From an uncultured Gammaproteobacteria bacterium (GTDB taxonomy: Bacteria > Pseudomonadota > Gammaproteobacteria > CAWCPV01), in the NCBI GenBank assembly GCA_963797555.1, contig CAWCPV010000004.1, positions 320,001-384,000 of the forward strand: DNA of 64,000 nucleotides. Direction: 5' to 3'. A program made the position numbers and the translations under genes. The notes below the pieces were generated by a model that searched no databases, was not told where the DNA came from, and was given only the letters and a program-made list of their open reading frames with translations. Each line of letters opens with the position of its first letter. The first letter of the stretch is position 1. This document shows positions 44,314 through 64,000 of the stretch, piece by piece.

Positions 44314-44893
44314 GCCGCTCGCTCTGCTGTTCTGTGCGCTGCTCTGCGCGGGTTGTGCCCCACGCGACATGGTCGTGCTCCTTCCGAGCAAAGACGGGCA
44401 TGCCAGCCAACTGGTCGTCACCCAGGACGGACGGGACACCGTGCTCGACACCCCCTATGCGTCGGTCCGTACCGACGCGCTGGGAGAGGTGGCCAAGACG
44501 AAGTCCAGCCCGCGCCAGGTACAGCGGGTGTTCGGCGCGTCGTTAGCGGCTCAGCCCATGCGCCCAGTCTCTTTCCTGCTCTATTTCGTGTCCGGTACGG
44601 ACGAGCTGACGCCGGAGTCACAGCGTGAGGTGGAGCGCATTTTCGCCGAGATCGCGCGTCGCCCCGCGCCCGAGATCACGGTCATCGGCCATACGGATCG
44701 GGTCGGCTCGGTGCGCGATAACGATCTCCTGTCCCGGCACCGAGCCGAGAAGGTGCGCAACGACCTGATCACGCGCGGTTTTCCGCCCGAGGGAATCTAT
44801 GCGGCCGGGCGCGGCGAGCGGGAGCCCTTGGTGCCTACGGCCGACGAAGTGAAGGAGCCGCGCAACCGGCGGGTGGAAATCAGCGTGCGCTGA
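44306..44893 (+). CDS. OmpA-family lipoprotein
   Basis: Lipobox 'LCAGC'; 'IGHTDRVG...N..LS..RA', 'RNRRVEI'. Confidence 0.9.
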   Translation: MNRPLALLFCALLCAGCAPRDMVVLLPSKDGHASQLVVTQDGRDTVLDTPYASVRTDALGEVAKTKSSPRQVQRVFGASLAAQPMRPVSFLLYFVSGTDELTPESQREVERIFAEIARRPAPEITVIGHTDRVGSVRDNDLLSRHRAEKVRNDLITRGFPPEGIYAAGRGEREPLVPTADEVKEPRNRRVEISVR

Positions 44894-46997
44894 CCGCCGG
44901 GGCGGTCCGCCTTACGGCGAGCAGGGTGAAGTCGTCACTCGCCTCCGCGCCGCCCACGAATCCCTTGACTGCGTCGCGCACCGCCTCGACGAGTCGTGCG
45001 GCGCGGTTGCTTCCAGCCCCCGAAAGCGCCGCCTCCAGCCTGTCGCGGCCGAACAGGGCGCCTGTATCGTCCATCGCCTCGGTGATCCCGTCGGTGAAGA
45101 AGACGAGCGCTTCATCGGGAGCGAGACCGACGCGCTCGGTCGGATACGGGTAATCCTCCAGCGCGCAGAGCGGCGGGCCGCCTTCGGCCCGGAGCCGCTC
45201 GACGGATCCTTGTGCGTCTATGCGATACGGAGGTTCGTGACCGGCCACCAGCAAGTCGATTTGCCATGTGCGGAGGTCGAAGACCGCAAAGATGGCGGTC
45301 ACGAACAGCAGTTCCGGGTTGTCGCGACAGATCTCGGCGTTCGCCTGGGCCCCGAGCGCCCCGATGTCGCCGTCGCCTCTGAGCGCGGCGCTCTTCACCA
45401 GCGCCTTGGCGACCGCCATGAATAAGCTCGCCGGCAGGCCCTTCCCCGCCACGTCGCCGATCAGGAGGAACAGGCGGTCGTCGTCCAGCAGGAAGAAGTC
45501 GTACAGGTCGCCGCCCACCTCTCGTGCAGGACGCATCGCGACCGCGATCTCGAAGCGTGTCTCACCCGGAAAGACTTCTTCCGGGAGCGGCAACATGCCG
45601 GTCTGGATGCGCCGCGCCGCATCCATCTCGCCGGCGATGCGCGCCGCCGCCACCCGTTGGGCCGCCAGCTCACGCTTGAGCGCCTGGCGCTGCCGTTGCG
45701 CCTCGAAGAAGGTGCCCAGGAATAGGTAGCCGGAAACCAGTGCCACGCCGGCGACAGGGCTCGCCGCGTCGAACAACAGCCCCTCGCTCCGATAGAGAAA
45801 GGCCCCGGCGCCCGCCAGTGTGGCGATGCTGCCCGCGGCCAAGGGCAGGGCGACCGCGGGACCCAAACGGGCGAAGGCTGCCACCACTAGGAGGCCGATG
45901 GCTGCGAGGGCCGCCGCCTCCGCCACGGCACTCCAGCGCACGCGCAGCAGTGTGGTGCCGTCGAATATCGACTCCAGGACCTGGGCGTGGATTTCCGCTC
46001 CCGGCATACGCTCTCCCGACGGCGTCGCCTGATTATCGACGAGGCCGAGGCCAGTGACCGCGATGATAGCCAGCTTGCGCTCAAAGGTTTCCCCGGCCAC
46101 GTTTCCCTGCAGGACTTCGGCGGCGGACACGAAGCGGCCAGGGTCATGGTGTCCATAGTGTACGTACAGGGTGCCGTCGGCCTGGGTCGGAATCAACAAG
46201 TCTCCCACCCCGACACCCTCCACGCGCTTGGCTTCGGCCTTGACGAGGAAAGCGGGCTCGCCGGCGGCGACCCGCAGCATCTCTATGGCGAGCGCGGGAA
46301 CGACGGTGTCCCGCACCGATCCGGCAAGGGGCACCCGGCGCAGCACGCCTGCCTCCGGATCGGCGCTCACGAGCCCGTGCCCGGATGCCGCGCGGTTGAT
46401 CGGGACGACGTTCGTGAGGGCAGCGGAGAAGCGCCTCAGGAGGAGGCGCGGATCTCCGCCTCGCATGATCACCGGTGCAGAGATGAGCGGGCTGGGCCTG
46501 TCCTTGGGGGTTTCATCGACGCCCGCGAGGCCGACCACCGACCCCACTCGGCGCAGGGCCGCCGCCAGCACGTCGTCGTTGCTGGGAAGGCGGCACACAC
46601 GCGCCTTCAGTGCGGCGTCGGCGCCCGGCAAATAGGAGATCAGGTCGCAGGGGGAGGTGCGGTCCGGCTCCGGCATCAGCATGTCCAGGCCCAAGGCCGC
46701 GGGGCGGCCGTCCGCGATGTGGTCCACGACCTGCGCCAGAAGGCTGCGCGGCCAGGGCCACTGGCCGAAACGGGCGAGACTGGCGTCGTCGATCGCCACG
46801 ATCACCACCGGCGCCGAGATCCGTTGCCTGGGGAAGAGCCACTGGTAAGTGTCGAACAGCTTCGCCTGGAGTCGGCTCGGCACCGCTTCGAGCACTACCA
46901 AAGCAGTCAGGGTGGCGAGCAGCAGGAGCGCCGAGTACAGGAGCGTCTTGCCGATGCCGCCAACCGCTGTTTCCGTCCCCGGTGCAGCGGCAGCCAT
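44880..46997 (-). CDS. CHASE2 sensor + SpoIIE/PP2C phosphatase
   Basis: 'IDDASL...GQWPWPR', 3 TM segments, 'VGGDLYD', 'GDVAGKG', 'FTDGITEA', 'DDFT'. Confidence 0.92.
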   Translation of the reverse strand: MAAAAPGTETAVGGIGKTLLYSALLLLATLTALVVLEAVPSRLQAKLFDTYQWLFPRQRISAPVVIVAIDDASLARFGQWPWPRSLLAQVVDHIADGRPAALGLDMLMPEPDRTSPCDLISYLPGADAALKARVCRLPSNDDVLAAALRRVGSVVGLAGVDETPKDRPSPLISAPVIMRGGDPRLLLRRFSAALTNVVPINRAASGHGLVSADPEAGVLRRVPLAGSVRDTVVPALAIEMLRVAAGEPAFLVKAEAKRVEGVGVGDLLIPTQADGTLYVHYGHHDPGRFVSAAEVLQGNVAGETFERKLAIIAVTGLGLVDNQATPSGERMPGAEIHAQVLESIFDGTTLLRVRWSAVAEAAALAAIGLLVVAAFARLGPAVALPLAAGSIATLAGAGAFLYRSEGLLFDAASPVAGVALVSGYLFLGTFFEAQRQRQALKRELAAQRVAAARIAGEMDAARRIQTGMLPLPEEVFPGETRFEIAVAMRPAREVGGDLYDFFLLDDDRLFLLIGDVAGKGLPASLFMAVAKALVKSAALRGDGDIGALGAQANAEICRDNPELLFVTAIFAVFDLRTWQIDLLVAGHEPPYRIDAQGSVERLRAEGGPPLCALEDYPYPTERVGLAPDEALVFFTDGITEAMDDTGALFGRDRLEAALSGAGSNRAARLVEAVRDAVKGFVGGAEASDDFTLLAVRRTAPAVSAR

Positions 46998-47003
46998 GAG
47001 CCG

Positions 47004-47964
47004 TCAGAGCGCGACCTCTAGACCGTCGTAGGCGGCGATGACTTCCACCCGGTGGTCGCCGCGAGTGATCTCCTCGAAGCGGCGCGTTTCGGCGAGAACC
47101 CTCGCGAGCTGCTCGTCATCGGAGGCCGGCTCGTGGTGGAACAGACACAGAGTCTTGGCGTGCGCGAGCTGGCAAAGCTCCACGCCCACCACGTTGCTGG
47201 AATGTCCCCAGTCCTCCTTCACCGAGATGGCGTCTGCCAACGAGTACATGGCGTCGAAGATCACCAGATCGGCGTCGCGAAAGAAGTCGGCGAAAGCACG
47301 CGTCTCCTCCACGTCGTCCAGCTTGTGCTCGGAGTCCGTCGAGTAGACGAGGGTCTTGCCGCCCATCTCGACGCGGTAGCCGTAGGAGTCCATGGTATGA
47401 AGCTGCAGCTTGGGAGTTACGCGCAACCCGGCGATGTCGTGGGTCTTCCCCGGATCGAGATGGACGAATTCGATGGTGGCGCCGAGAGTGTCGAATTCGA
47501 CCGGAAAGCAGGGCGCCGACTGTTGGCGTCGGAATCCTTCCTCCAGGCAGAAATGGCACCCGTAGATACGGATCAGGTTGCCTGGAATGTAAGCGGGAAC
47601 GAAGAAGGGAAAGCCCATGATATGGTCCCAGTGGACGTGGGACATCAGCACGTGAAACACGTTCGGCTTGCCGAATCCGTGCTTGGCCAGCACCGAATTG
47701 CCGAAGGGGCGCACCCCACTGCCCAGGTCGCACAAGACGTACTCGCTGCCACCTGTCTCCAGCTCCACGCAGGAGGAATTGCCTCCGAAAGAATGACCCA
47801 CACTGAAGTCGAGATCGTGGTCCACGAAGGCCCGTGCCTTTTCCGGAGTATCGAGATTCCGACCTGCGGCCGCCACCAAGGCGGTCACGAGCTTGTCTTT
47901 CAGACCGGCTGCGGTGAGCGCGACCGGGAGGGGATCCGCGCGTGCCCCAGAACCTGACGATCAC
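47004..47964 (-). CDS. Metallo-beta-lactamase-fold hydrolase (frameshift near 47930)
   Basis: 'RFWGTRGS', 'GGNSSCVE', 'SHVHWDHIMG', 'WGHS', 'FHHEP'. Confidence 0.88.
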
Positions 47965-47974
47965 GGGTTTCTCC

Positions 47975-48331
47975 TCACCGCGGCGTTGCTGCAAGGTGCA
48001 GGGTCGCCTCCTCGGCGGACGGGAAAACCTCGAACACCCGGTCGAATCGGCTGATCTCGAAGATCTCCTGGACCACCGGCTGTAATCCGGCGACCACTAT
48101 CCTCAGGCCTTGGGCTTTCATTTGCTTGGCCGCGAGCATGAGCACGCGCAGCCCGACGCTGCTCATGTAGTCCACTCCCGCAAGGTCGAGGACCAACGGG
48201 CAGCCATCCTTCTTGCAGTCGTCAAGGCTGGGAGCGAGGCCATTTTTCAGCACCTCCGCGTTGGGGTGGTCAATCCGCCCGCTGACCGAAACCACGAGGA
48301 TCCCGTCCGCGCGCCTGCTCGTCATCTCCAT
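47975..48331 (-). CDS. STAS anti-sigma-factor antagonist
   Basis: 'LDLAGVDYMSSVGLRVL'. Confidence 0.92.
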   Translation of the reverse strand: MEMTSRRADGILVVSVSGRIDHPNAEVLKNGLAPSLDDCKKDGCPLVLDLAGVDYMSSVGLRVLMLAAKQMKAQGLRIVVAGLQPVVQEIFEISRFDRVFEVFPSAEEATLHLAATPR

Positions 48332-52221: not shown

Positions 52222-55059
52222 ATGACCACGCTCTTCATCAGCCACAGCAGCAAGGACAAAGGGTGGGCCGAGGTGCTGCGCGAGACCCTGCACGGCCAGG
52301 GCTACCAGTCGCTGTTCCTGGACTCCCACCCGGACGACGGCATCCCTGCCGGGGCCAAATGGGAGCAGACCCTCTGGCAGCGACTGCGGCAATCCCGCGG
52401 CGTCGTGGTACTGTGCACCAAGGACTGGCTCGCCTCGCCCTGGTGCGTCGCCGAGGCGATGATGGCGCGGGAAGCGGGGCAAGCCGGTCTTTCTCCTCGC
52501 CACTGCGGAGGTCGCGGACGGGCGTCAGGTCAAGGCGGCGGGGGAGGGAGGAGAAACGCCGCAGATCCCGGATTTCCTCAAGGACACCCAGTTCATCAGC
52601 TTGGCCGGCGTGTCCGAGGAGGAGGCCCTGCAGCGCCTCTGGCGCGGGCTGGAAGAAGAGGGCCTGAAGGACGATTTCCCGCTGCCGGAGCGGCCCTATC
52701 CGGGGCTGGAGCCCTTCCAGGAGCGAGATGCCGCCGTCTTCTTCGGCCGGGACCAGGACATCGCGCGAGTGCGAGGCGTCCTCAACCGATGCCGGCGCCG
52801 CAACGCGAAGGGCTTCATCCTGGTCCTGGGCGCCTCCGGATGCGGCAAGTCCTCCCTGGTGCGGGCGGGCGTGCTGCCGCGGCTCAGGCCCGTCGCCAGC
52901 GCGGGCGGCTCATCGCGTGAGTGGGTGATCGCGACCCCTTTCATCGGCAGCACGGGCCTCGACGGGCTCACCCGATCGCTGGCAACGGCTTTCGCGGACC
53001 GCAAGCCGCCAGAAGACCTCGAGTCCAAGATCCGAGCGATCGAGGCGGCGACGGACTCTGATGGCGGCACGCAAGAGGCCGCGCGGTCATTGCGGAGTCT
53101 CGCCAACAGCTTGCTCATCGCTTACGGCTGCACTGAAGGACACGTGCTGCTGGTGCTGGACCAGCTCGAAGAGGTGTTCGGAAGCAAGCCCGGCTCGGGG
53201 GCACGCATCATGCTGCGGCTGCTGCTGGGGGTCACCGCCGAGGACGGCAGCCCCGTGGTGGTCCTCGCCACCATGCGCTCGGATTTCCTCAACGCCTTTC
53301 AGCTCTTTCCCGGTGCCGCCGAGCGTTACGAGGAGGTCACCCTCGACCCCATGCCCAGGGCCCGCTTCGCCGAGCTGATCGAGGGGCCGGCGGAGCGCTT
53401 CGGCCTGCGGATCGAGCCCGGGCTGACCGAGCGCCTGGTGGAGGACACGCGCTACGACGACGCCCTGCCCCTGCTCGCCTTCACCCTGGAGCGGTTGTAC
53501 AAAAAGGGCGGGGAGGACGGGGTGTTGACGCTCCAGGAGTATCAGGACCTCTTCCCGCCCGTCGCCGTGCGCGGTGAGGACGGGCGCACGACCGAGCACC
53601 GAGGCGTGTCCGCCGCCATCAAGCACGCGGCCGACGAGATCCTCTCCCAGACCGGTTATGCCAGGCTTCTCGTCGAAGACCGACCCGCGCCTGCGCGACC
53701 TGCGCCGCGCGTTCTACAGTCTCGCCCGGGTGGGGGAGGCGGGCCAGTTCACGCGTCGCACCGCCCTGCGGTCACGGATGCCGTCGTTCGTGCGCGGAGG
53801 TCCTCGAGCGCTTCGTGGACCAGCGCCTGCTGGTGTCCGACGTGGGGAAGGATGGCGAGCGCACCCTGAGCGTCGCCCACGAGGCCCTGTTCCGCGTCTG
53901 GGACACCCTGCACGGCTGGCTGCTGCAAGACCGCAAGGCACTCGCGCTGCGCCACCAGATCGAGCAGGCCGCCGCCGAATGGCATGCCGCGCACCGGGCC
54001 GAGAGCCGCCGCTGGCCGGAGGAGCGCATCCTGGACGCGGTGGGCGAGATCGGCCGCAGCGGCGTGTCCCTCGATGACGTGGCCCAACCCGAGATCGTGC
54101 GCGCCTTCCTCGGCCCGACGCACCCGGAAGTCCTGTCGGAGCTGCCGTCCCTCGGCGCGGCCGAGGATCAGGCAGCCGGCAGCGGCTGCTACGGCGACGC
54201 CTGGCGTCTGCCCCTTTCCCACGAAGCGCGGGCCAGCGTCGGTGTGCGCCTGGCCCTGCTCGGCGACCGCCGCGGCGGCGTGGGGCTGCGCGACGATGGC
54301 ATGCCGGACACAGCCTGGTGCCGGGTCGAGGGCGGCGAGGTGATCATCGAGATCCGCGCGAACCCCGACGACCCGCGATCGGAGGTCGCGAGCACGCTCA
54401 CGCGGACGGTGCCCCGTTTCTGGATCGCACGCTATCCGGTCACCGTCGCCCAGTTCCAGGCGTTCCTTCGGGACTGTCACCGCGATGGCGAGTGGCACCT
54501 GCCGTCCGGCCTTCCCTTCGACCTCCCCGCCGACTACCCGCCGCCCAAGCACCGGGCAGGCTACGGTAACCATCCCGCTGATTCCGTCAACTGGTGGGAT
54601 GCGGTCGTCTGGTGTCGCTGGCTGAGTGCACGGCTCGGGCACGAGATCCGGCTGCCGACGGAATTCGAGTGGCAGCTTGCCGCGACAAGAGGCGACCCCG
54701 CCAGGACCTATCCCTGGGGCCCCGACTGGGATCCGCAGCAGGAGCCCTGGAGGGCCAACACTGTCGAGAGCGGCCTCAACAGATCCACGGCGGTCGGGCT
54801 CTACCCCTCGGGCGTGTCGCCGGCTGGCGTGCTGGATATGGCAGGGACCCTCTGGGAATGGTGCCTGAACAGTTTCGAAGACCCCGAGAACACGGGCCTT
54901 CCCGCAGACCAGCAGGACCGTCGTGTGCTGCGCGGCGGGTCCTGGTACGACGATCAGGCCCTCGCGCGCTCCGGCATCCGCCTCAGGCTCAGCCCGAGCA
55001 ACCGCGGCGGCAGCGTGGGGTTTCGGGTGTTGTGTTCGTCCCCCATCTGTGATCACTGA
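52222..55059 (+). CDS. DGR target 1: TIR + STAND (nSTAND1-like) NTPase + FGE-sulfatase/CLec-fold domain; several apparent frameshifts
   Basis: GGAGG RBS; TIR 'LFISHSSKD...SPWCVAE'; 'PYPGLEPF...FFGR', 'GASGCGKSS', 'LDQLEE', 'LPLLAF'; 'YPVTVAQF', 'RLPTEFEW', 'DMAGTLWEW', 'RGGSW...GFRV'. Confidence 0.9.
54922..55047 (+). repeat. DGR variable repeat VR1
   Basis: 126-nt gapless match to TR with 19 mismatches, 18 at TR adenines. Confidence 0.96.
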
Positions 55060-56247
55060 TCTCTGGCTGCCGCGCGAGCGGCACACACGGCGCGCAGCGG
55101 CGTCTCCGCGCGCTGAACGCGGCTTGGGTACCGCTGTGAGGACGCGGTGGACACGTGGTCAGGATTCCCGGGCCGCCTTTGCGCGGCGATGCTTGGCAGT
55201 ATGCACAGCGACCCAAGCACGTGTTGGCGCAGGCCCCAGCTATCGGCGTGGCCCATGTGGGCGATCCAGCCTTGGATACTCGCGTCGAGCCTCGGCGAAG
55301 CTGATCGCGCCGGCGTGATAGGCCGCCAGCCGTGAGCGCAGCCCCCGCCGAGCGTTGCGCACCTTGCGGCCCTTGACCAGCCGGTGGGTCGGGTGGACCA
55401 CGAAGCCGAGCCAGGGAATGCCGGCCTGGACCGGCAGAACCTGAGCGCGCGTTTCGTGGATAACGAGCCGCAGCCGGGCGAGCCTTTCGATGATCGCCGC
55501 CTTCCAGGCCCACAGCTCGCGCTTGCGGTCGCCGAAGAGGGCGAAGTCGTCGACGTAGCGCAGATAGGCTGGGCAGCGTAGGTCGCGCTTCACGAACTCG
55601 TCGAAGGGGTGCAGGTAGCAATTGGACCAGAACTGCGATGTCAGATTGCCTATCGGCAGGCCCCTCGGCCGGCACACGGCCAGCAGGTCATCCCCTGGGA
55701 AGCGCACGTAGCGGTACTCGTCGTCCAGCACGCCGCGGCCGCTGTCGACGATGGCCTCGACCAGCGCCATGATGTCCGGCTCCGGCATCTGGCGGCTCAG
55801 GGTATCGAGCAGGACCGCGTGATCGACAGACGCGAAGTGCTGCACGATGTCGGCGCGCAGCACGTAGCGGTGAAGGCGAGCGAATTCCTGTAGCCGGTCG
55901 ATGGCCCGGTGGGTGCCCTTGCCGGCCCGGTTGGCGTAGCTGTCCGGCATGAAGAGGCGCTCGAAGCGGGGCTCCATCACGGTGCACAGGGCGTGGTGCA
56001 CGACTCGATCGCGGAACTGGGCCGCGCTGATCTTGCGCCGTTTCGGGTCCTTGATATGGAAGTGGACGTAAGCGCCCGGGCGGTACGTGCCCGCCAGCAA
56101 CTGCGCGCGTAGCTCCGCCAGATGCTCCTCCGCTCGGTACTCGAAGCGGGCGACGCTCTGCGTGCCACGCTTGCCGCGCGCCGCCCTGCGCCAGGCGAGC
56201 ACCAGGTTCTCCCAGGAGCACAGATGCTCGAAGGCGGGGCTCGTCAT
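55053..56247 (-). CDS. DGR reverse transcriptase (apparent +1 indel near 55290)
   Basis: 'WENLVLAWRRAARGK', 'DPKRRKISAAQFRDRVVHHAL', 'GKGTH', 'GLPIGNLTSQ', 'YLRYVDD', 'WLGF'; C-terminal 'SIQGWIAHMGHADSWGLR' in the shifted frame. Confidence 0.93.
55068..55103 (+). other. Tandem hairpins downstream of VR1 (putative target-recognition element)
   Basis: TGCCGC-GCGA-GCGGCA followed by ACGGCGC-GCA-GCGGCGT (one mismatch). Confidence 0.7.
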
Positions 56248-56298
56248 CGAAGCGGGCCGCGCCACGCCTGGCGCGGCAACCCGAAACGGAGCATGAGC

Positions 56299-56643
56299 AT
56301 GGCCGAGGACATGGTGATCTTCTCGCGGACCTTCGACCTGCTGGAGTGGCTGCTGCCCAAAGCGGAGCGCTTCCCGCGGGTCTACCGATCCACCCTCACC
56401 CAGCGATTGATGGATGCGGCCCTGGACCTGCAGGAGACGCTGGCTGCCGCGGAATCGCGCGAGGGCCGATCGCGGGTATCCGCCCTGCGCAATGCCGATG
56501 CCGCCCTCGGGCGGCTGCGCATCTACCTGCGCCTCGCCCACCGCTGGCGCTGGCTGAGCGACGGCCAGTACGAGCACGTGAGCGCCATGACGGCTGAGAT
56601 CGGCCGGCTGCTAGGGGGCTGGGTCCGCTCGGAGCGCGGCTGA
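56299..56643 (+). CDS. avd: DGR accessory variability determinant (four-helix bundle)
   Basis: 114 aa; 'FPRVYR..L.QR', 'LRIYLRLA', 'YEH....EIGRLLGGW'; GGAG RBS. Confidence 0.9.
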   Translation: MAEDMVIFSRTFDLLEWLLPKAERFPRVYRSTLTQRLMDAALDLQETLAAAESREGRSRVSALRNADAALGRLRIYLRLAHRWRWLSDGQYEHVSAMTAEIGRLLGGWVRSERG

Positions 56644-56678
56644 GGGCGGCCGAGAGGCCGAAGCCTGCGGCCGGGGGC

Positions 56679-56719
56679 GGGGCGCCGGGGGAGCGGACTC
56701 CGGCCGGCGCCCCTGTTTT
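56679..56719 (+). terminator. GC hairpin plus T tract after avd
   Basis: GGGGCGCCGG ... CCGGCGCCCC followed by TGTTTT. Confidence 0.45.
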
Positions 56720-56905
56720 GTATGCGCCCGACGGCCCGGCGACGCTAGGCCGTGCGGACGGGACCGACCGGCGCCATCTTTCCTACCTCGCCTCGGCCCG
56801 CAAACCGTCGTCGGCGGGCAATTCCGGAAGCGGGTCCGATCCGCAGCATGGACCTGACCCACTCGCTCGGCGCCCGAAAGCGCCTCGCCCTGGAAGGAAC
56901 CGAAA

Positions 56906-57034
56906 GATGTGGGACGAACACAACACCCGAAACCCCACGTTGTTGTTGCGGTTGTTCGGGTTGTTCCTGTTGCGGTTGCCGGAGCGCGCATTGTCCTGAT
57001 TGTCGTTCCAGGACCCGCCGCGCAGCACACGGGC
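56906..57034 (-). ncRNA. DGR template repeat (TR)
   Basis: Intergenic AAC-rich copy of both VRs; reads [43 protein letters not shown] with 12 AAY codons. Confidence 0.96.
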
Positions 57035-57181
57035 GTCGTCACCGGGCGGCCCCACCGGCCGTCAGACCGGCGTTGCCGATTATGCCGGAGATGGCGGACG
57101 CTAGCCAGACCACCGATGCATCGAACCCGGCCTGCACCACGTGGCAAACCGCGAGATGAGGCGAGTGGAAAATCCGCGTAA

Positions 57182-57220
57182 AGACGGCGCTTCGCGCCGT
57201 CTATGCCGCTCCCGCGGCAT
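57182..57220 (-). other. Tandem perfect hairpins downstream of VR2
   Basis: Minus strand: ATGCCGC-GGGA-GCGGCAT then AGACGGCGC-GAA-GCGCCGTCT. Confidence 0.8.
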
Positions 57221-57227
57221 CCAGTGA

Positions 57228-59960
57228 TCAGTGATCACAGATGGGGGACGAACACAACACCCGAAACCCCACGCCGTTGCCGCGGCCGCCCGGGCTGCCC
57301 CCGAAGCGGTAGCCGGAGCGCGCATAGCCCCGATCGACGACCCAGGACCCGCCGCGCAGCACACGGGCATCGAAATCATCGGCGCGGGACTCGATCACCT
57401 CGGTTCTGTCGTGCTTGTTCCAGCACCATTCCCAGACCGTTCCCGCCATGTCGAGTGCACCTGCCGGGGAGCCGCCAGCGGGGTACATGCCGACCGCGGT
57501 AGCGGCCCCGAGCCGGCTCTCGAAGGTGTTCGCCCGGTGCGGCTCGCCTTTGGGATCCCACTCGGGTCCCCAGGGGAAAACATTATCGGGGTCGCCGCCC
57601 GTGGCCGCCTGCTGCCATTCCCACTCGTCCGGCAGGCGTACGTCGAAGCCGCGGCGCCGCGAAAGCCAGCGGCAGAAAGCGAGGGCGTCGAACCAGCTCA
57701 CGTAGACCGCAGGGTGGTTGCCGTAGCGGCCGAGGTCGTAGCCGTCGCCTTCGGGATCGCGATAAAGGTCTCCTGCCCACCAGCGGGGATCGCGCCAGCC
57801 GTCATCCTTCTCCAGGAAGGCCCGATACTGCGCGACCGTGACGGGGTAGCGGGCGATGTGAAAGCCCTCGACCTGCTTGCCGCGCGCTTTGGTGCCGCCG
57901 AGCAAACGCCGCTGGACCTGAATGGCGACCTCGCCGCCGGGCACTGGGCACCAGTCCATCTGCGGGGTCCCCTGCGCATCGACCCCCACCCCCAGCCGCG
58001 GGTCCCCGAGGACGGCGAGGCGCTCGCCGATGAGGGTGCGGCGGCGGTGGGTCGTGTCGGGCCTGTCGATCTCGGCCAGCATTGCATCGGCATCGACGGG
58101 ACCGAGGAACTCCTCTTCTTCCGGGCTCAGCACGAAGCGCGGGCCGGGCTGCCGCAGCATCGACGCCAGTTCGCGCACGCGCTCGTGCGACCAGAGGTAG
58201 CTCGGTTGCTTCTGGTGCTCGAGCCAGTTGCGCGCGTCCGCCTGAAGCTGCTGGCCCAGCGCCGCCCGCTGCTTATGCTGCTCGACATAGTTCCAGAGCG
58301 TCGGCCAATAGGGCTGGGCCTTGCCCTCGGGGTCCAGGCCCTTGCTGCGGATCAGCGTCTCGTGGATCAGGCTGACCCACCGCCCGTCGCGCTGCGCGTC
58401 CTCGTCCCCCTCGGTCCGCTCGGTCACGGTGATGAGCCGCAGCGGCCCCTGTGTCTGCCCCACGTCCCGGGCGCGCTCGCCGGCGAGACGACTGACCAGG
58501 GCGCGACCGTCATCGCCGCCGCCCGCCGCTGCCATGGCCTCGGGGAACGGGAGACGCCGGCGGGTGTGACGGCGTCCTTCGGGGTCCACGTTCACCAGCC
58601 GGAACAGAAGCTCCAGAGCCCGGTTGCGCTCGCTGCCCAACGCTTGGAGCAGATCGTCGGCGCTGCGGCTGAGGATGCCGGCGAGGCCGCCCTGATCGGT
58701 GAAGAGCTTGCCGCTCAGGCGGGGGCTGTTCTTGCGCTGCTCCCACAGCCAGTGGAGCGCGTTCTCGACCAGCGGCAGCGCCCCCGGCTCGTCGTACGCC
58801 TGTTGCACCATGGCCTCCTGCACCTCGCTCACATCGAGACCGGCCAGCCGCGCCGGGCCGCCGATGACCTCGCGCAGAGCATCCGCAGTAATGGGCGGCA
58901 GCGTCCAGGGCTTACCCAGCCGGTTGCGCAGGCCGACCAGCCGCCGCAGGTCCTCGAAGCGGTCGAGAAAGTCCGCGCGCACGGTGGAGATGATGAACAG
59001 CGGACAATCGTTGTCTCCCAACGCGCCCGCGAGCAGGCGATCGAAGTGCTTGCGCTCGTCCGGGTCGGAGAAGGTGAACAGCTCCTCGAACTGATCGATG
59101 GCGAGCAGAAAGGCGCTGTCGTCCCGCTTGCGGCTGCGTAGCCAGTCGGTGAGGGCGCGGTCACTGGCCTCCAGGCGTTGGCGGACATCGGCCATCTCCT
59201 CCTCGAAGGTCAGCGCGAGCTTCTCGGCCAGCATGGCCACCGGGTGCTCCCCCGGCATCATCGGCCCGATCCGCCGCCAGTGCTCGATGCGGGTGCGGGG
59301 CCACAGCCAACCCTGCTCCACCAGCGGCAGCAGGCCGGCGCTCATCAGCGAGGACTTGCCGGAGCCGCTGTTGCCGTTGATCTCCAGCCAGCGCACGCTC
59401 GGGCTGCCGGGACGGGTGTCGAAGCAGGCGAGCGCGTCCAGGGTCTCCTTCTGGCGGCCGAAGAAGAGCTGGGCCTGATCCATGTTGTAGGCGGCGAGTC
59501 CGACGAAGGGGCGGCCCTCGAACTTGGCAGCGCTTGCCACCAGGGTGCGGTCGCGGATCTGCGCGAGCAGTCGCTCGGGCAGGGGGGCCGCCCCATCCCA
59601 GAGTGTCGCCTGGAACAGCCGCAGGAAGGCCGGGAGCGTGTCGGGTCCCATGTCGCCCAGCAGGATGGGAAAGATCGGCAGGCGCTCGGCGTCGTCGTGG
59701 GGACCGAAATAGCGGTTGAGCGCCGCCTGGGTCTCGGCCCCGATCCAGCGCCGCACCCCGTCCCGGCCCACCAGCACGACGAAGCTTCCGCAGGCATCCA
59801 CCGCCTCCTGCAGGCGGTCGAGCCACAGCTCGCCCGCGCGGATGCGATCGTCGTCCTTGAACACCGACAGCCCGCACCGATCGAGCTGCCCGCGGAGGTT
59901 GATGGCCGCTTCGAGGTCGTTACGGCTGTGGCTCAGGAAGACGTGGTAGGGATCGGTCAT
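57228..59960 (-). CDS. DGR target 2: TIR + STAND (nSTAND1-like) NTPase + FGE-sulfatase/CLec-fold domain, intact 910 aa
   Basis: 'VFLSHSRND...WIGAE'; 'PFVGLAAY...FFGR', 'GNSGSGKSS', 'IDQFEELF', 'PGALPL'; 'YPVTVAQY', 'RLPDEWEW', 'RGGSW...GFRV'. Confidence 0.93.
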   Translation of the reverse strand: MTDPYHVFLSHSRNDLEAAINLRGQLDRCGLSVFKDDDRIRAGELWLDRLQEAVDACGSFVVLVGRDGVRRWIGAETQAALNRYFGPHDDAERLPIFPILLGDMGPDTLPAFLRLFQATLWDGAAPLPERLLAQIRDRTLVASAAKFEGRPFVGLAAYNMDQAQLFFGRQKETLDALACFDTRPGSPSVRWLEINGNSGSGKSSLMSAGLLPLVEQGWLWPRTRIEHWRRIGPMMPGEHPVAMLAEKLALTFEEEMADVRQRLEASDRALTDWLRSRKRDDSAFLLAIDQFEELFTFSDPDERKHFDRLLAGALGDNDCPLFIISTVRADFLDRFEDLRRLVGLRNRLGKPWTLPPITADALREVIGGPARLAGLDVSEVQEAMVQQAYDEPGALPLVENALHWLWEQRKNSPRLSGKLFTDQGGLAGILSRSADDLLQALGSERNRALELLFRLVNVDPEGRRHTRRRLPFPEAMAAAGGGDDGRALVSRLAGERARDVGQTQGPLRLITVTERTEGDEDAQRDGRWVSLIHETLIRSKGLDPEGKAQPYWPTLWNYVEQHKQRAALGQQLQADARNWLEHQKQPSYLWSHERVRELASMLRQPGPRFVLSPEEEEFLGPVDADAMLAEIDRPDTTHRRRTLIGERLAVLGDPRLGVGVDAQGTPQMDWCPVPGGEVAIQVQRRLLGGTKARGKQVEGFHIARYPVTVAQYRAFLEKDDGWRDPRWWAGDLYRDPEGDGYDLGRYGNHPAVYVSWFDALAFCRWLSRRRGFDVRLPDEWEWQQAATGGDPDNVFPWGPEWDPKGEPHRANTFESRLGAATAVGMYPAGGSPAGALDMAGTVWEWCWNKHDRTEVIESRADDFDARVLRGGSWVVDRGYARSGYRFGGSPGGRGNGVGFRVLCSSPICDH
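57240..57368 (-). repeat. DGR variable repeat VR2
   Basis: 129-nt gapless match to TR with 23 mismatches, all at TR adenines. Confidence 0.97.
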
Positions 59961-60024: not shown

Positions 60025-61050
60025 TCATGCCGGAAGCGACACGAGACCGAGCCTTGCTTGCAGGCCCTTGCGGACCAACTGCACGGCGCGGCGCATGTCC
60101 CTTGTCGCGAGCAGCTCGCGGGTCTCCGGCTCATCCAGGCCGGTGCTGAGTGCCGCGGAAAGATTGGGCCTGGCTGTTTCGATGTGCTGGAACAGGGCGT
60201 CCAGCGCATCCCCAGTGGCGCGGACGCCGAGTGGCAACTGGAACTGCGCGCTCAGGTCCAGCAGCTTCTCGAGGCCCGCGGTCCTGGCCTTGTGCCAATC
60301 CACGGTGAATTCCTCGGGACGGGTTGCGGCCGGGCCGAGCAGCGCCCTGGACAGCACTTCCGCGGCGCCGCCGAACCCGCCCAGGATGTAGAGCGGGACT
60401 TGGCGTTCGAGTGCCATCAGCGCTTCCTCGAAGATGCCGGGCAGAAAGCCGCTGAACCCTTGCACCTTGCCGCCGAGTATCACCCGCGCCACGATCGGCG
60501 GCACCGGCTCCGGGCTCGGGAGGTCGGGAATGTCGATGGCCATGCCGTCCATCGCCAGGCGGCGCATGCTGCTCAGAGCGACGGCGGCGTTGAACAGCGC
60601 GCGATCCGAGCCTCCTCTCGCTTCATGGTCCGGAACCGTATCCGCCTGCGAAATGCCCGCGTGCTGCTGGGTGATGCGAACGACCCGGCAGCAGTTGATC
60701 CACTCGGCCTCGATCCGGGGCGTGATGTCGAGGTAGTGCGGCCATGCGGAATGGTTGTAGAGCCGGCCGATCACGAGATTGGTATCCGGACCGCCCAGGC
60801 TGTTGTCCTCCTGCTCCGCGCTGATCAGGCGCAGGAGGTCGAAGGTGAAGTTGTCCTCGGTTTCTTGCCAGTGGCCGCCGTAGGCGAGGCTCACCCCCTG
60901 TCTCAGCAGGGGGCGTGCGAGGCGCAGCAGCAGCTCGCGCAGGTGCTCCAGGCCCAGGCCGCGGGCCAGGAGGTTTTCCCTCGCATAGGAGACGGAGAGG
61001 CCGACGACGCGAGGCGTGCTGGCTCGCGAGCGATACTTGCCGCCGCTCAT
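60025..61050 (-). CDS. SLOG-superfamily (cluster2-like) protein
   Basis: 'VGLSVS', 'LAYGG', 'LSSMR', 'RVILGGK...G.LPGIFEE', 'PLYILGGFGGAA'; ATGA overlap with the upstream TIR gene. Confidence 0.75.
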   Translation of the reverse strand: MSGGKYRSRASTPRVVGLSVSYARENLLARGLGLEHLRELLLRLARPLLRQGVSLAYGGHWQETEDNFTFDLLRLISAEQEDNSLGGPDTNLVIGRLYNHSAWPHYLDITPRIEAEWINCCRVVRITQQHAGISQADTVPDHEARGGSDRALFNAAVALSSMRRLAMDGMAIDIPDLPSPEPVPPIVARVILGGKVQGFSGFLPGIFEEALMALERQVPLYILGGFGGAAEVLSRALLGPAATRPEEFTVDWHKARTAGLEKLLDLSAQFQLPLGVRATGDALDALFQHIETARPNLSAALSTGLDEPETRELLATRDMRRAVQLVRKGLQARLGLVSLPA

Positions 61051-62354
61051 AATGCCACCTGGTCGAAGCTGTGGAAGGCGAGCCGCGGGAAGAATTCGTC
61101 GAGAATATCGAGCTCGAGCCCGGAAAGACCGCGGCCAGGATAGAGCACGCGCAGCTCCTCGCTTGCCGCCCGCACCCTGGGGATATGCAGCAGCGTGGTG
61201 GGGTCGGGCAGCCAGTTGAGAACGATGCAGTCCGCCTCGTCCGGCATCGTTCTTCCGAGAGCCGAGTGGAACGCGGCGAGCAGGACGTCGCGCAGCGCGA
61301 TGGTCACGATCTGCTCCGATTGGTGCAGTTGCGCCGCGGGGTCGACCGGTTCGTCCGACCAGCGGATGAGCGTGGCGTTGCCGATCTCGGGGATGCCCGG
61401 TGTCTGGGATCCCCCTTCGAGCGCTTCGACCACGACCATGGGATTCAAGCGCCACCGCTCGGCGAGGCCGGGCCTCGGGATGTCCTGCAGCGGGCGCCGA
61501 AACAGCGACAGCTCGCGCCGGCACCATGGGCGGGTCGCATAGCGGGCGCTGCGCACGGCGATCATGGCCGCGGTCTGCATGCCCTCGACATTCGACTGCA
61601 GCACCCGGCTGAACGCCGATCCGAAGGGAATGTCGTTTTCATCATAAAACGCGGCGAGCTGGGTCTGACTGTAGATATAGTCGCGAATCCGCCTGGCGGG
61701 CTCCGTGCCATCCGCCTTGGCATGGCTGAGAAAAATCGTGATCTTCGGCTGAGCCGCGTCCACCGCCGCCCCGCCATCGACCGCGTTCCCGGCCGGCGCG
61801 TCCCCCGGCCTCAGCATGATGCGGCACAGGGCCTCGGTGAGCTGCTTCAAGAGCGAGCGGACCACGGTCTCGGTCGCCTCCGGCGGTACTGGAGCACCCG
61901 CGACGGGCAACGGCAGACCTGCGGGGCGGAGGAAATTCAGCTCGCGCAGGGGCGCGGGCACGTTGAATGCCGTCGAATCCAGGGCCACCGGCAGGAACAC
62001 GCGGCGCACGCCAGTGCCGCGCTCCAATGCGAGTCGCACCAGCCAGTGCCGCCAGGCGGCATCCGCGATCATCTGATCGTCGATCAGCAGCAGCACGGTC
62101 TGCATGTTGGCGGAGCCGGAGGCGGGCGCCTGTGGCGGGGGTGGGGAGTTGGGGCCTGGAAACCGCGACTCTCCCGGCAAGGGCGGGGGCAACCCGCCCT
62201 TCGGGGCTTCCGGAGCCGGAAGGCTGCGGTAGAACACCTGCGGGCCGAGGCCATTGCCAGGCCTCAGCCACCCATGAATGCGCGGGGCCAGCAGTTCTCC
62301 GAGCGTACTGGCGGGGTGCCACAACACGAAGATCTCAGGAATCGGATAGTCCAC
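61047..62354 (-). CDS. TIR-domain protein
   Basis: 'IFLSHAKADG', 'FYDENDIPFG', 'YATRPWCRRE'; additional N-terminal alpha/beta domain. Confidence 0.85.
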   Translation of the reverse strand: MDYPIPEIFVLWHPASTLGELLAPRIHGWLRPGNGLGPQVFYRSLPAPEAPKGGLPPPLPGESRFPGPNSPPPPQAPASGSANMQTVLLLIDDQMIADAAWRHWLVRLALERGTGVRRVFLPVALDSTAFNVPAPLRELNFLRPAGLPLPVAGAPVPPEATETVVRSLLKQLTEALCRIMLRPGDAPAGNAVDGGAAVDAAQPKITIFLSHAKADGTEPARRIRDYIYSQTQLAAFYDENDIPFGSAFSRVLQSNVEGMQTAAMIAVRSARYATRPWCRRELSLFRRPLQDIPRPGLAERWRLNPMVVVEALEGGSQTPGIPEIGNATLIRWSDEPVDPAAQLHQSEQIVTIALRDVLLAAFHSALGRTMPDEADCIVLNWLPDPTTLLHIPRVRAASEELRVLYPGRGLSGLELDILDEFFPRLAFHSFDQVAL

Positions 62355-62552: not shown

Positions 62553-64000
62553 TCAGGTGCCCCTGGATCTCTCCCGCGCACTGCGAAACCAAGAGAGCAG
62601 CCCACGGCCGGCATGCCGCCGGCAAGCTTCAAGCTCGGCCTCGACGGTCTTCTTGTCGTCCGCCCACTGGGCCATCCCGGGCGCCCGCTCCAGCAGGGCG
62701 GCGAAGATACGGTAGGACGCTTCGTAAAGGGGCAAAGCGGCCTCGTTCCTGCCATTGCCGGCCTCCATGCGCGCAAGCCGCAGATAGGCTAACGCCAGGT
62801 CGCGCTGCCAGCCGGCGTTGCTCGGGTCCTGCTCGGCCAGGCGCCGGCTGATGGCGAGGGTTTGCTCGAAGGCCGAGCGCGCTGCCTCGAGCTGCCCTTG
62901 GGCCTGCAGCACGCCGCCCACCCGGCTGTGCGCCACCGCGAGGCCGCGCTGCCAGCCGGCGTTGCTCGGGTCCTGCTCGGCCAGGCGCCGGCTGATGGCG
63001 AGGGTTTGCTCGAAGGCCGAGCGCGCTGCCTCGAGCTGCCCTTGGGCCTGCAGCACGTCGCCCACCCGGCTGTGCGCCACCGCGAGGTCGCGCTGCCAGC
63101 CGGCGTTGCTCGGGTCCTGCTCGGCCAGGCGCCGGCTGATGGCGAGGGCTTGCTCGAAGGCCGAGCGCGCTGCCTCGAATCTGCCCTTGGGCCTGCAGCA
63201 CGCCGCCCACCCGGCTGTGCGCCACCGCGAGGCCGCGCTGCCAGCCGGCGTTGCTCGGGTCCTGCTCGGCCAGGCGCCGGCTGATGGCGAGGGTTTGCTC
63301 GAAGGCCGAGCGCGCTGCCTCGAGCTGCCCTTGGGCCTGCAGCACATCGCCCACCTGGCTGTGCGCCACCGCGAGGTCGCGCTGCCAGCCGGCGTTGCTC
63401 GGGTCCTGCTCGGCCAGGCGCCGGCTGATGGCGAGGGACTGCTCGAAGGCCGAGCGCGCTGCCTCGAGCTGCCCCTGGGCACGGAAAACGTCGCCGAGCA
63501 GACAACGCCCCTCCCCCTGCGCCGGCTCGTCGGTGCTGACACGTGCGAGATTCGAGAATCTCGCGCGCGGCGTCGGCGAGCTGTGCCGTTTCTCCCCGCG
63601 CGTCGCGCGCCCAAGCGATGGTGATCAGGCTCCAGAGGCGTGCCCGCCCATCGACGAGGCGGGTTTCGTCGAGCTCTCTGAGAACCGTCGCCAGGGCGTA
63701 CCGGTCCTCCGGGCGTGCACTGCTACTCCAGTGCCGGTTCAGGCGTTCCAGCTCACTCGCGCCGCGTTCGGGGTCGGCGCATAGCTGGTGGTAAATCCAT
63801 TCGATGCGGCCCGTTGCCCCGAGGTCGTCCGGGAAGCATGCCGCCGCGAGGGCGGACAGGGAACGGAGGTGGGAGAGGTTCTCCAGAGCTAGCGTCCGCC
63901 GCCATCCCAGGCGGGTGGATTCGTGGACGTTGCGCCGGTTCAGCCCGCCTCTGCCGTACCGCTCGACGAAGGGAAAGGACGCCAGCGCCTCGAACCGTCT
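62553..64000 (-). CDS. TPR-repeat protein, 5' end outside the window; apparent indels near 63550 and 63180
   Basis: Frame open from 64000 ('FEALASFPFVERY...NVHESTR...EWIYHQL') leading into 48-aa repeats 'AFEQALAISRRLAEQDPSNAGWQRDLAVAHSRVGDVLQAQGQLE'. Confidence 0.8.
62796..63480. repeat. About 4.7 near-identical 144-bp coding tandem repeats
   Basis: Anchor GCTGCCAGCCGGCGTTG at 62804, 62948, 63092, 63237 and 63381. Confidence 0.93.

Follow-up and report, generated by a model that had tools for sequence, protein, structure and literature searches.

A diversity-generating retroelement (DGR) acting on two NLR-like genes had been predicted from the letters alone in a 64,000-nucleotide stretch of an uncultured gammaproteobacterium (assembly GCA_963797555.1, contig CAWCPV010000004.1, positions 320,001 to 384,000 of the forward strand). 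This whole stretch is called the window below, and coordinates without a prefix count from its first letter. For features elsewhere, G000 denotes this assembly, C-numbers its contigs, L-numbers related loci and P-numbers homologous proteins. Every element of the original prediction was found in its place: a reverse transcriptase (RT), an Avd-like accessory gene, a template repeat (TR) and two variable repeats (VRs) at the ends of two target genes. Two inward-facing targets enclose a cassette in a target-VR/TR/(avd, reversed)/RT/VR-target scheme, with TR and RT on the minus strand. The features of the locus are as follows.

52222-55059, plus strand: target gene 1, ending in VR1 (54922-55048); Pfam TIR_2, nSTAND1 and FGE-sulfatase (C-type-lectin fold), matched across frame pieces
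56247..55240, minus strand: RT open reading frame (ORF) of 335 aa, between VR1 and avd; Pfam RVT_1, Protein Data Bank (PDB) matches and tree
56296-56643, plus strand (opposite to RT and TR): avd, between RT and TR; Pfam bAvd, NCBIfam and PDB matches
57038..56905 (core 57031..56905), minus strand: TR, A-rich on that strand
59960..57228, minus strand: target gene 2, intact, 910 aa, ending in VR2 (57372..57239); Pfam TIR_2 (90-195 of the long ORF), nSTAND1 and FGE-sulfatase
55068..55083, plus strand: GC-rich hairpin after VR1, 6-bp stem, loop GCGA (DNA fold)
57203..57220, minus strand: GC-rich hairpin after VR2, 7-bp stem, loop GGGA (DNA fold)
57202..57182, minus strand: second hairpin past VR2, followed by T residues
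56725..56833, minus strand: conserved structured RNA, ~70 to 180 nt downstream of TR (17-sequence alignment, covariation)

Template repeat, variable repeats and their targets

VR1 (54922..55048, plus strand) and VR2 (57372..57239, minus strand) each align to the TR without gaps. The repeat finder returned the TR/VR2 pair as D2 (134 nt, 82%) and the TR/VR1 pair as I2 (127 nt, 85%), and the likeness of VR1 to VR2 runs ~64 nt beyond the end of the TR homology (repeat I1, 191 nt). The gapless alignment was oriented on the A-rich strand, and mismatches were counted both in the 127-nt core and over the 134-nt stretch. In the core, VR1 differs from the TR at 19 positions, 18 of them TR adenines, and VR2 at 23 positions, all 23 of them TR adenines, the same counts that had been obtained by hand in the original prediction. 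Over 134 nt, VR2 has 24 mismatches, of which 23 fall on TR adenines. The hypergeometric probability of this enrichment over 134 nt is 4e-10 for VR1 and 4e-18 for VR2.

The TR contains 31 adenines in 134 bases, and all 31 stand at codon positions 1 or 2. Twenty-seven of them are changed in at least one VR and 14 in both, with the same base at 8 of these 14 sites. Because only 8 of the doubly changed sites agree, VR1 and VR2 were written independently, in line with the earlier observation that their substitutions differ. Adenines occur in 17 TR codons, 12 of which are AAC or AAT; these codons allow ~1e17 protein variants per VR, and none of the possible changes produces a stop codon. In the gene 2 product, VR2 corresponds to residues 864 to 906 of 910.

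The cassette was compared with related loci by scanning one genome per species, which yielded 33 RT loci with 59 to 87% identity in hosts that include Accumulibacter, Dechloromonas, Thauera, Defluviicoccus, Acidobacteriota and Anaerolineae. The avd gene lies on the reverse strand directly upstream of the RT in 25 loci and on the forward strand in 1; in the other 7, several of them at contig ends, no avd was found. An automated screen detected adenine-specific TR/VR pairs in 21 of the 33 loci, with at least two VRs in 11 of the 21, and the arrangement of the window, with one inward-facing VR on each side, was present in 8. The layout recurs across Proteobacteria, Acidobacteriota and Chloroflexota. 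Ordinary paralogy or gene conversion between two gene ends, joined by a pseudogene fragment, would explain the bare existence of repeats and nothing more. The confinement of the mismatches to the adenines of one copy, at the probabilities given above, already refutes it, the A-rich copy lies outside both targets and beside RT and Avd genes, and the arrangement recurs in the 21 related loci, so that an origin without a DGR has next to no chance of being correct. Among 31 genomes (G000 and 30 that share only its class), the search for a gene 1 orthologue in close relatives gave only chance-like matches of 29 to 54 nt.

As had been predicted, a single TR is paired with two VRs, each at the 3' end of a gene with TIR_2, nSTAND1 and FGE-sulfatase domains, which both the alignment and the Pfam matches bear out. 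Gene 2 scored 255 bits for nSTAND1 and 147 bits for FGE-sulfatase. Of 8000 candidates that were scored, 1896 matched it at E ≤ 1e-3, and all three domains are present in most of the 120 matches listed; where these give a source name, it is Contendobacter, Rhodospirillales or Thioflavicoccus. An AlphaFold2 model of gene 2 built on 48 sequences reached a mean predicted local distance difference test score (pLDDT) of 83.6, and Foldseek matched its C-terminal domain to FGE enzymes and to the DGR variable protein TvpA (2y3c, E 2.2e-11). Walker A (GSGKS), Walker B (DQFEE) and TIR residues W72 and E76 are invariant in 48 of the 48 aligned sequences; E76 is presumably the TIR catalytic residue. In a Kyte-Doolittle scan with a 19-residue window, neither target contains a hydrophobic stretch above 1.36. 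Since both proteins thus lack a membrane segment, they are probably cytoplasmic, as the original prediction had assumed.

The two targets had also been called paralogous, which is true in a loose sense. Gene 1 and gene 2 are 25% identical in the NTPase part and 44% identical in the C-terminal part, and each has closer full-length relatives elsewhere. Gene 1 belongs to a subfamily of its own with intact members of 939 to 949 aa, for example P0121 (71%) and a protein of Thiocapsa rosea, and the related locus L012 contains one target from each subfamily.

Machinery and cis elements of the cassette

The RT translation contains both motifs named in the original prediction, GNLTSQ and YVDD. Its best PDB match is 8ub7_A, the Bordetella phage RT (bRT; E 2.6e-43), from an entry that also has an Avd chain. 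Among group II intron RTs the best match reached 4.9e-17, and a chain named "retron-type" reached 2.7e-12. The window IGNLTSQ aligns with IGSLTSQ of bRT, and DGR RTs typically carry this SQ motif. NCBIfam lacks a model for DGR RTs; with the group II model there, the window RT scored 126 bits against a cutoff of 300, which four other RTs of this genome exceed. In a tree of 31 rows (one 256-aa fragment dropped), whose rows do not include the named DGR reference clades, the window RT falls inside a clade of avd- and TR-linked RTs with support of 100/99. A branch of 1.24 splits this clade from one of seven rows that comprises the genome's four RTs above the group II cutoff, two partial group II-like RTs and one other RT. 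The phylogenetic check proposed with the prediction thus places the window RT in the avd/TR-linked clade and apart from the group II RTs of its own genome. The rows nearest to the window RT belong to metagenome-assembled genomes (MAGs) of gamma-, beta- and alphaproteobacteria, which suggests that the RT clade spread horizontally.

Assignment of the Avd-like gene was upheld by three sources that agree. Its product scored 70.9 bits with Pfam bAvd (cutoff 40) and 83.5 bits with NCBIfam DivGenRetAVD (cutoff 80), and its PDB matches are Bbp7 (4dwl) and Avd (8ub7_B).

The TR ends in a sequence that resembles an IMH* (initiation of mutagenic homology) element, TCCCACATCT. One of the adenine changes counted above, an A>C at TR 56910, is identical in VR1 and VR2, and the contrast of TCCC-A-CATC in the TR with TCCC-C-CATC in the VR was found in 9 of 9 loci (the window and 8 relatives). 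Because the same TR-A/VR-C pair recurs in all nine, the sequences identify this site as a fixed IMH*/IMH marker that distinguishes donor from recipient, not as a product of mutagenesis. The truly variable fractions at adenines are therefore 17/18 for VR1 and 22/22 for VR2.

In the DNA fold, hairpins with a 4-nt loop lie 3' of both VRs and none lies 3' of the TR. The fold of the VR2 hairpin has z = -5.5, and 0 of 200 shuffles fold as well. GC-rich inverted repeats are readable after the VRs in most of the 8 relatives, as judged from the printed sequence without folding. The functions of the hairpins and of the IMH/IMH* pair would be those known from Bordetella phage BPP-1, a parallel taken over from excerpts of Wu et al. 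2018 (PMC5758913).

The structured RNA at 56725..56833 was defined from 17 sequences and has 16 pairs, with 94.9% of alignment cells paired. Changes on both sides occur in 6 of the 16 pairs compared with 2.2 ± 1.1 in shuffled alignments, of which 2 in 500 reach 6, and slid controls were only 32 to 49% paired. An Rfam search of 54800-57500 at E ≤ 1 gave no match. The spacer region of the BPP-1 DGR RNA provides the analogy for an RNA handle, and by that analogy the element is probably the spacer of the DGR RNA, which would recruit RT-Avd and prime cDNA synthesis. The same RNA is common to DGRs of this RT clade in Proteobacteria, Acidobacteriota and Chloroflexota (the window and 16 further sequences). 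It may represent a new RNA family, made up of spacer RNAs from DGRs of the TR-(avd)-RT type. A consensus scan of 54900-57400 for promoters and terminators found 0 of either.

Frame breaks and the state of the element

The original prediction described the DGR as complete. As assembled, this is not literally so, for the RT contains one frame break and target gene 1 contains three; these breaks were absent from the earlier account. Gene 1 consists of four frame pieces (52222-52482, 52472-53680, 53682-53786 and 53788-55056, followed by the stop codon), with breaks at ~52472-52482, 53680-53682 and 53784-53788 that amount to three net +1 changes. tblastn with the intact homologues P0121 (949 aa) and P0128 (939 aa) revealed no in-frame stop within the pieces and no other lesion, and identity to P0121 was 71 to 85%. 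In the RT, the conserved C-terminal ~33 to 50 residues are shifted by +1 from ~55290 and continue at 55289..55191; this segment is present in the related loci L009, L010 and L015.

To place these breaks in context, 378 ORFs from 400 kb of a complete genome of the same class were used as probes. They gave 120 orthologue-like matches (151 kb), of which 21 were split across frames in this assembly; after removal of two tandem-paralogue rows and one antisense duplicate, 20 shifts remained, or ~1 per 7.5 kb of coding sequence. The net change was +1 in 14 of these 20 shifts and in all 4 at this locus. According to their Pfam matches, the split reference ORFs include an rpoD-type sigma-70 factor, class I aminoacyl-tRNA synthetases of the tyrS/trpS and metG types, D-Ala-D-Ala ligase (ddl), RelA/SpoT, glutamate-cysteine ligase (gshA) and RecQ, where three shifts fall within 1.7 kb. 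Since essential genes cannot all be pseudogenes, the assembly carries insertion-type consensus errors. The breaks at the locus have the same signature as those in essential genes, and we infer on this ground that all four, three in target 1 and one in the RT, are probably assembly errors. Such indels may also explain the 84.6% completeness of this 20-contig assembly. Examples of indels elsewhere lie at C4:316961 (3 kb before the window start), C3:710276-711950, C19:13634 and C13:22638. A clean assembly with a true pseudogene had been considered on the basis of 78 high-GC3 open frames of at least 1000 aa and was rejected by the direct test with ORFs of the same class.

Several observations weigh on the other side. 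In the assembled sequence, a conserved C-terminal segment is lost from the RT, and no single protein can be read from target 1. With four breaks in 3.1 kb, the locus lies above the genome-wide rate, which predicts ~0.4 in gene 1, and three shifts in one gene were seen in only 1 of ~118 reference genes. Outside the breaks, VR1 has a single mismatch at a position other than an adenine, T>C at TR 56990. For the proposed function, the only PADLOC match of gene 2 is a weak one to SAVED_TIR (E 1.8e-5) at the TIR part, with no Avs or NLR model, and excerpts of Doré et al. 2024 (PNAS, PMC10907252) report no defense phenotype, ligand or TIR activity for any STAND protein tipped with a C-type lectin (CLec) domain.

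The breaks could instead be real. The RT and target 1 would then be truly frameshifted, mutagenesis would have ended, the VRs would be fossils and gene 2 would be at most a sensor of fixed specificity. All four breaks fall in 52472-55290 and none in avd, the TR or gene 2; the genome also contains a truncated, broken gene 1 paralogue with a VR-like end (C5:111971-113477) and a cassette that lacks an RT (C4:520444-520839), and the excerpts of Doré et al. 2024 (PMC10907252) describe a multi-DGR genome in which the machinery of degenerate loci is absent or pseudogenised. Against degeneration, net +1 breaks at ~1 per 7.5 kb, sometimes clustered, also affect essential genes, gene 1 has suffered single-base shifts but neither stops nor deletions and is 71 to 85% identical to an intact homologue, and the VRs have hardly decayed at positions other than adenines (one site in VR1, none in the core of VR2). 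Because the breaks are more clustered than average, we retain a degenerate element as an unlikely but serious alternative, and it is the strongest of those considered.

In one public run (X1, a soil metagenome), 0.07 of the sampled words were present, as short contigs only. The 8 contig pieces listed all lie off the frame-break sites, with 25 further pieces beyond these, and mean depth was 0 to 0.4 in the bins with the gene 1 breaks and 0 in the bin with the RT break. A single contig of depth 3.1 reads G at 54953, a VR1 site opposite a TR adenine, which is too weak for use. The element is presumably active now. With about one frame-breaking indel per 7.5 kb, apparent pseudogenes of this assembly need read support. 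RTs and targets are likewise in 2 to 4 frame pieces in L033, L034, L036 and L037, related loci from long-contig MAGs; these splits may reflect assembly noise of the same kind or true decay, and DGR pseudogenes could not be surveyed reliably in MAGs of this sort.

Proposed mechanism, relation to known systems and genomic setting

An RT, an Avd, a TR and TR/VR mismatches restricted to adenines together identify the locus as a DGR. Our preferred explanation is a genuine cellular DGR with a TR-(avd)-RT cassette flanked by two targets, and we consider it about 85% probable with the following mechanism included. Its demonstrated basis is the set of parts, the adenine-only signature, the independent substitutions in both VRs, and a layout and cis elements that are kept in relatives. 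The minus-strand TR and the structured RNA downstream of it would be transcribed, and RT and Avd would copy this RNA into cDNA while misincorporating opposite template adenines. The cDNA would then replace VR1 or VR2, guided by the shared 3' homology, in which the fixed A/C marker would tell donor from recipient, and by the GC hairpin. In two cytoplasmic TIR-nSTAND1 proteins, up to 17 codons of the C-type-lectin (FGE-like) tip could be recoded in this way, with ~1e17 possible variants and no stop codon among them. Ligand binding at the lectin tip would lead to oligomerisation of the NTPase and to NAD-cleaving or signalling activity of the TIR domain, which would constitute a response to invaders.

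An adaptive-immunity-like role is a published hypothesis for the class, and we extend it to the window locus by inference. An active DGR could instead serve recognition of kin or self in aggregates, of other invaders or of small molecules, or regulatory tuning. No CLec-tipped STAND protein is characterised experimentally in the excerpts of Doré et al. 2024 (PMC10907252), a paper on cyanobacterial DGRs casts the targets, in the part consulted, as regulatory (PMC7517822), and no PADLOC defense model matches. The combination of TIR, STAND NTPase and variable C-terminal sensor is, in contrast, the architecture of characterised antiviral Avs and bacterial NACHT proteins as presented in the same excerpts (Doré et al. 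2024, PMC10907252), and neighbouring TIR and SLOG genes are described as typical of conflict systems in excerpts of Kaur 2020. A role other than defense is improbable on this balance, somewhat more so than degeneration of the element.

That the class has precedent, as the original prediction stated, is borne out by two papers. In excerpts, Kaur, Iyer, Burroughs and Aravind (2021, eLife, PMC8195603) describe proteins with N-terminal effectors that include TIR, central NTPases that include nSTAND1 and a C-terminal FGS domain (FGE-sulfatase, C-type-lectin fold); these STAND-NTPase-FGS proteins are often linked to an RT and a four-helix accessory protein, and they are proposed as analogues of hypermutating adaptive immune receptors. 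Both window targets have exactly this architecture, with no difference in kind from the excerpted description, and the instance in the window belongs to a lineage without a close genome among the 30 relatives searched. Doré et al. 2024 (PMC10907252), also in excerpts, report that in clade 5D a DGR often acts on two targets, each with one CLec domain and with nSTAND1 or NACHT at its centre, some also with TIR, that such genomes contain several DGRs, including degenerate loci, and that VRs are diversified in nature. DGR 6 and DGR 3 of Thiohalocapsa sp. PB-PSB1, like the clade 5D DGRs, resemble the window element as described there in having two single-CLec targets per DGR with nSTAND1 or NACHT, in variable sites at codon positions 1 or 2 that are proof against stops, in a genome that contains several DGRs, and in classes that combine one complete locus with degenerate loci without an RT. 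The targets of DGR 6 carry an EAD8 adaptor and recruit a separate peptidase, whereas in the window targets the TIR effector is fused. Accumulibacter is both among the hosts of multiple related DGRs named in the excerpts and among the sources of the nearest relatives of the window RT. The locus thus adds an instance to a class already in print (Kaur et al. 2021; Doré et al. 2024), and the kind of system is not new.

The element of Bordetella phage BPP-1 (mtd-avd-TR-brt) provides the closest solved relative of the window RT (8ub7_A) and a related Avd. Both systems mutagenise adenines and have a VR at the 3' end of a gene whose product adopts the C-type-lectin fold, and both have a non-identical IMH/IMH* pair with a GC-rich inverted repeat after the VR, roles for which are given in the excerpts of Wu et al. 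2018 (PMC5758913). BPP-1 is phage-borne with a tail-fibre target, whereas the window system is cellular with cytoplasmic TIR-NTPase targets; in the window, in addition, avd is inverted between TR and RT, and the two targets lie on opposite strands. The order and the reverse-strand avd are those of architecture B3, TR-(avd)-RT, in the excerpts of Wu et al. [quoted passage not shown] Here, in contrast to that description, it is seen in 25 of 33 loci and is the conserved layout of a clade with members in Proteobacteria, Acidobacteriota and Chloroflexota. Antiviral STAND proteins (Avs, bacterial NACHT) share the tripartite plan of effector, STAND NTPase and C-terminal sensor. Their sensor consists of TPR-like repeats, whereas that of the window targets is a DGR-diversified lectin fold without a PADLOC Avs or NLR match.

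The genome contains at least 6 TRs and 9 VRs, with at least five TR/VR systems besides that of the window, on C3, C6 and C14 (two) and at C4:520444-520839. Their positions, with those of the other complete RTs, are as follows.

C3:44622-49605, C6:61146-62933, C14:5796-9617 and C14:227735-229247: four further DGR loci with adenine-specific TR/VR pairs, from 12/12 to 18/21 mismatches at adenines
C4:520199-520839: cassette without RT or avd, TR 520444-520570, VR 520712-520839, 143 kb downstream of the window locus
C17:67087-68034, C5:221786-222478, C4:300218-301078 and C14:379457-380176: group II intron RT/maturase genes above the NCBIfam cutoff

The RT of the C3 DGR is split across two frames. 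One of the four group II RTs lies 20 kb before the window start, and three partial RT copies were found (one on C20, two on C5). A whole-genome search of the assembly found no third VR for the window TR. Other TR-like hits were considered as remote VRs and rejected, as their mismatches fall on all four bases and they are TRs or VRs of other DGRs. In the C4 cassette, 17 of 17 VR mismatches are at adenines, and its TR together with ~330 nt of downstream spacer is 75% identical to that of the window. Because TR and spacer are shared at this level and neither RT nor avd is nearby, this cassette may be served in trans by the window RT and Avd.

Two genes lie directly upstream of gene 2 and are co-oriented with it.

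62354..61047, minus strand: TIR-domain gene, 435 aa, TIR at 207-287 (Pfam), no domain assigned in the N-terminal half
~61053..60025, minus strand: SLOG cluster-2 gene, ~342 aa (Pfam)

They resemble a nucleotide-signalling pair. Such a TIR and SLOG pair stands beside a target in 1 of the 33 related loci (L033, 27% identity), and at the system level PADLOC matched neither gene 2 nor the two upstream genes. The TIR and SLOG genes may be functionally linked to the DGR. A broader scheme combines this link with the C4 cassette: in an active element, the hypermutated TIR-nSTAND1 receptors would not work alone but, once a ligand is captured, would use their TIR domains to supply a nucleotide-signal relay that runs through the upstream TIR and SLOG genes, while the RT and Avd also serve the C4 cassette in trans. 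We regard this combination as a long shot. If it were true, one retroelement would drive a distributed, somatically diversified repertoire of receptors wired into Thoeris-like signalling. Farther upstream of the TIR and SLOG genes, a TPR protein gene (62553-63614, minus strand) contains 6 to 7 tandem 144-nt units (repeats 62604-63611) with 61 to 99% identity, which code for its tetratricopeptide repeats. Upstream of the DGR, at 44880-48331 (minus strand), genes for a CHASE2-SpoIIE phosphatase, an MBL-fold hydrolase and a STAS-domain protein make up a signalling cluster that resembles a partner-switching system and has no evident link to the DGR.

The window locus leaves the picture of Kaur et al. 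2021 and Doré et al. 2024 unchanged. In bacteria, the best candidates for an antibody-like, anticipatory repertoire of receptors are NLR-like proteins diversified by DGRs. The locus is a compact example of these, with fused TIR effectors, independently mutated VRs on two targets, conserved cis elements and a covarying RNA next to the template, and because it is compact and clean, it could serve as a model for reconstitution.

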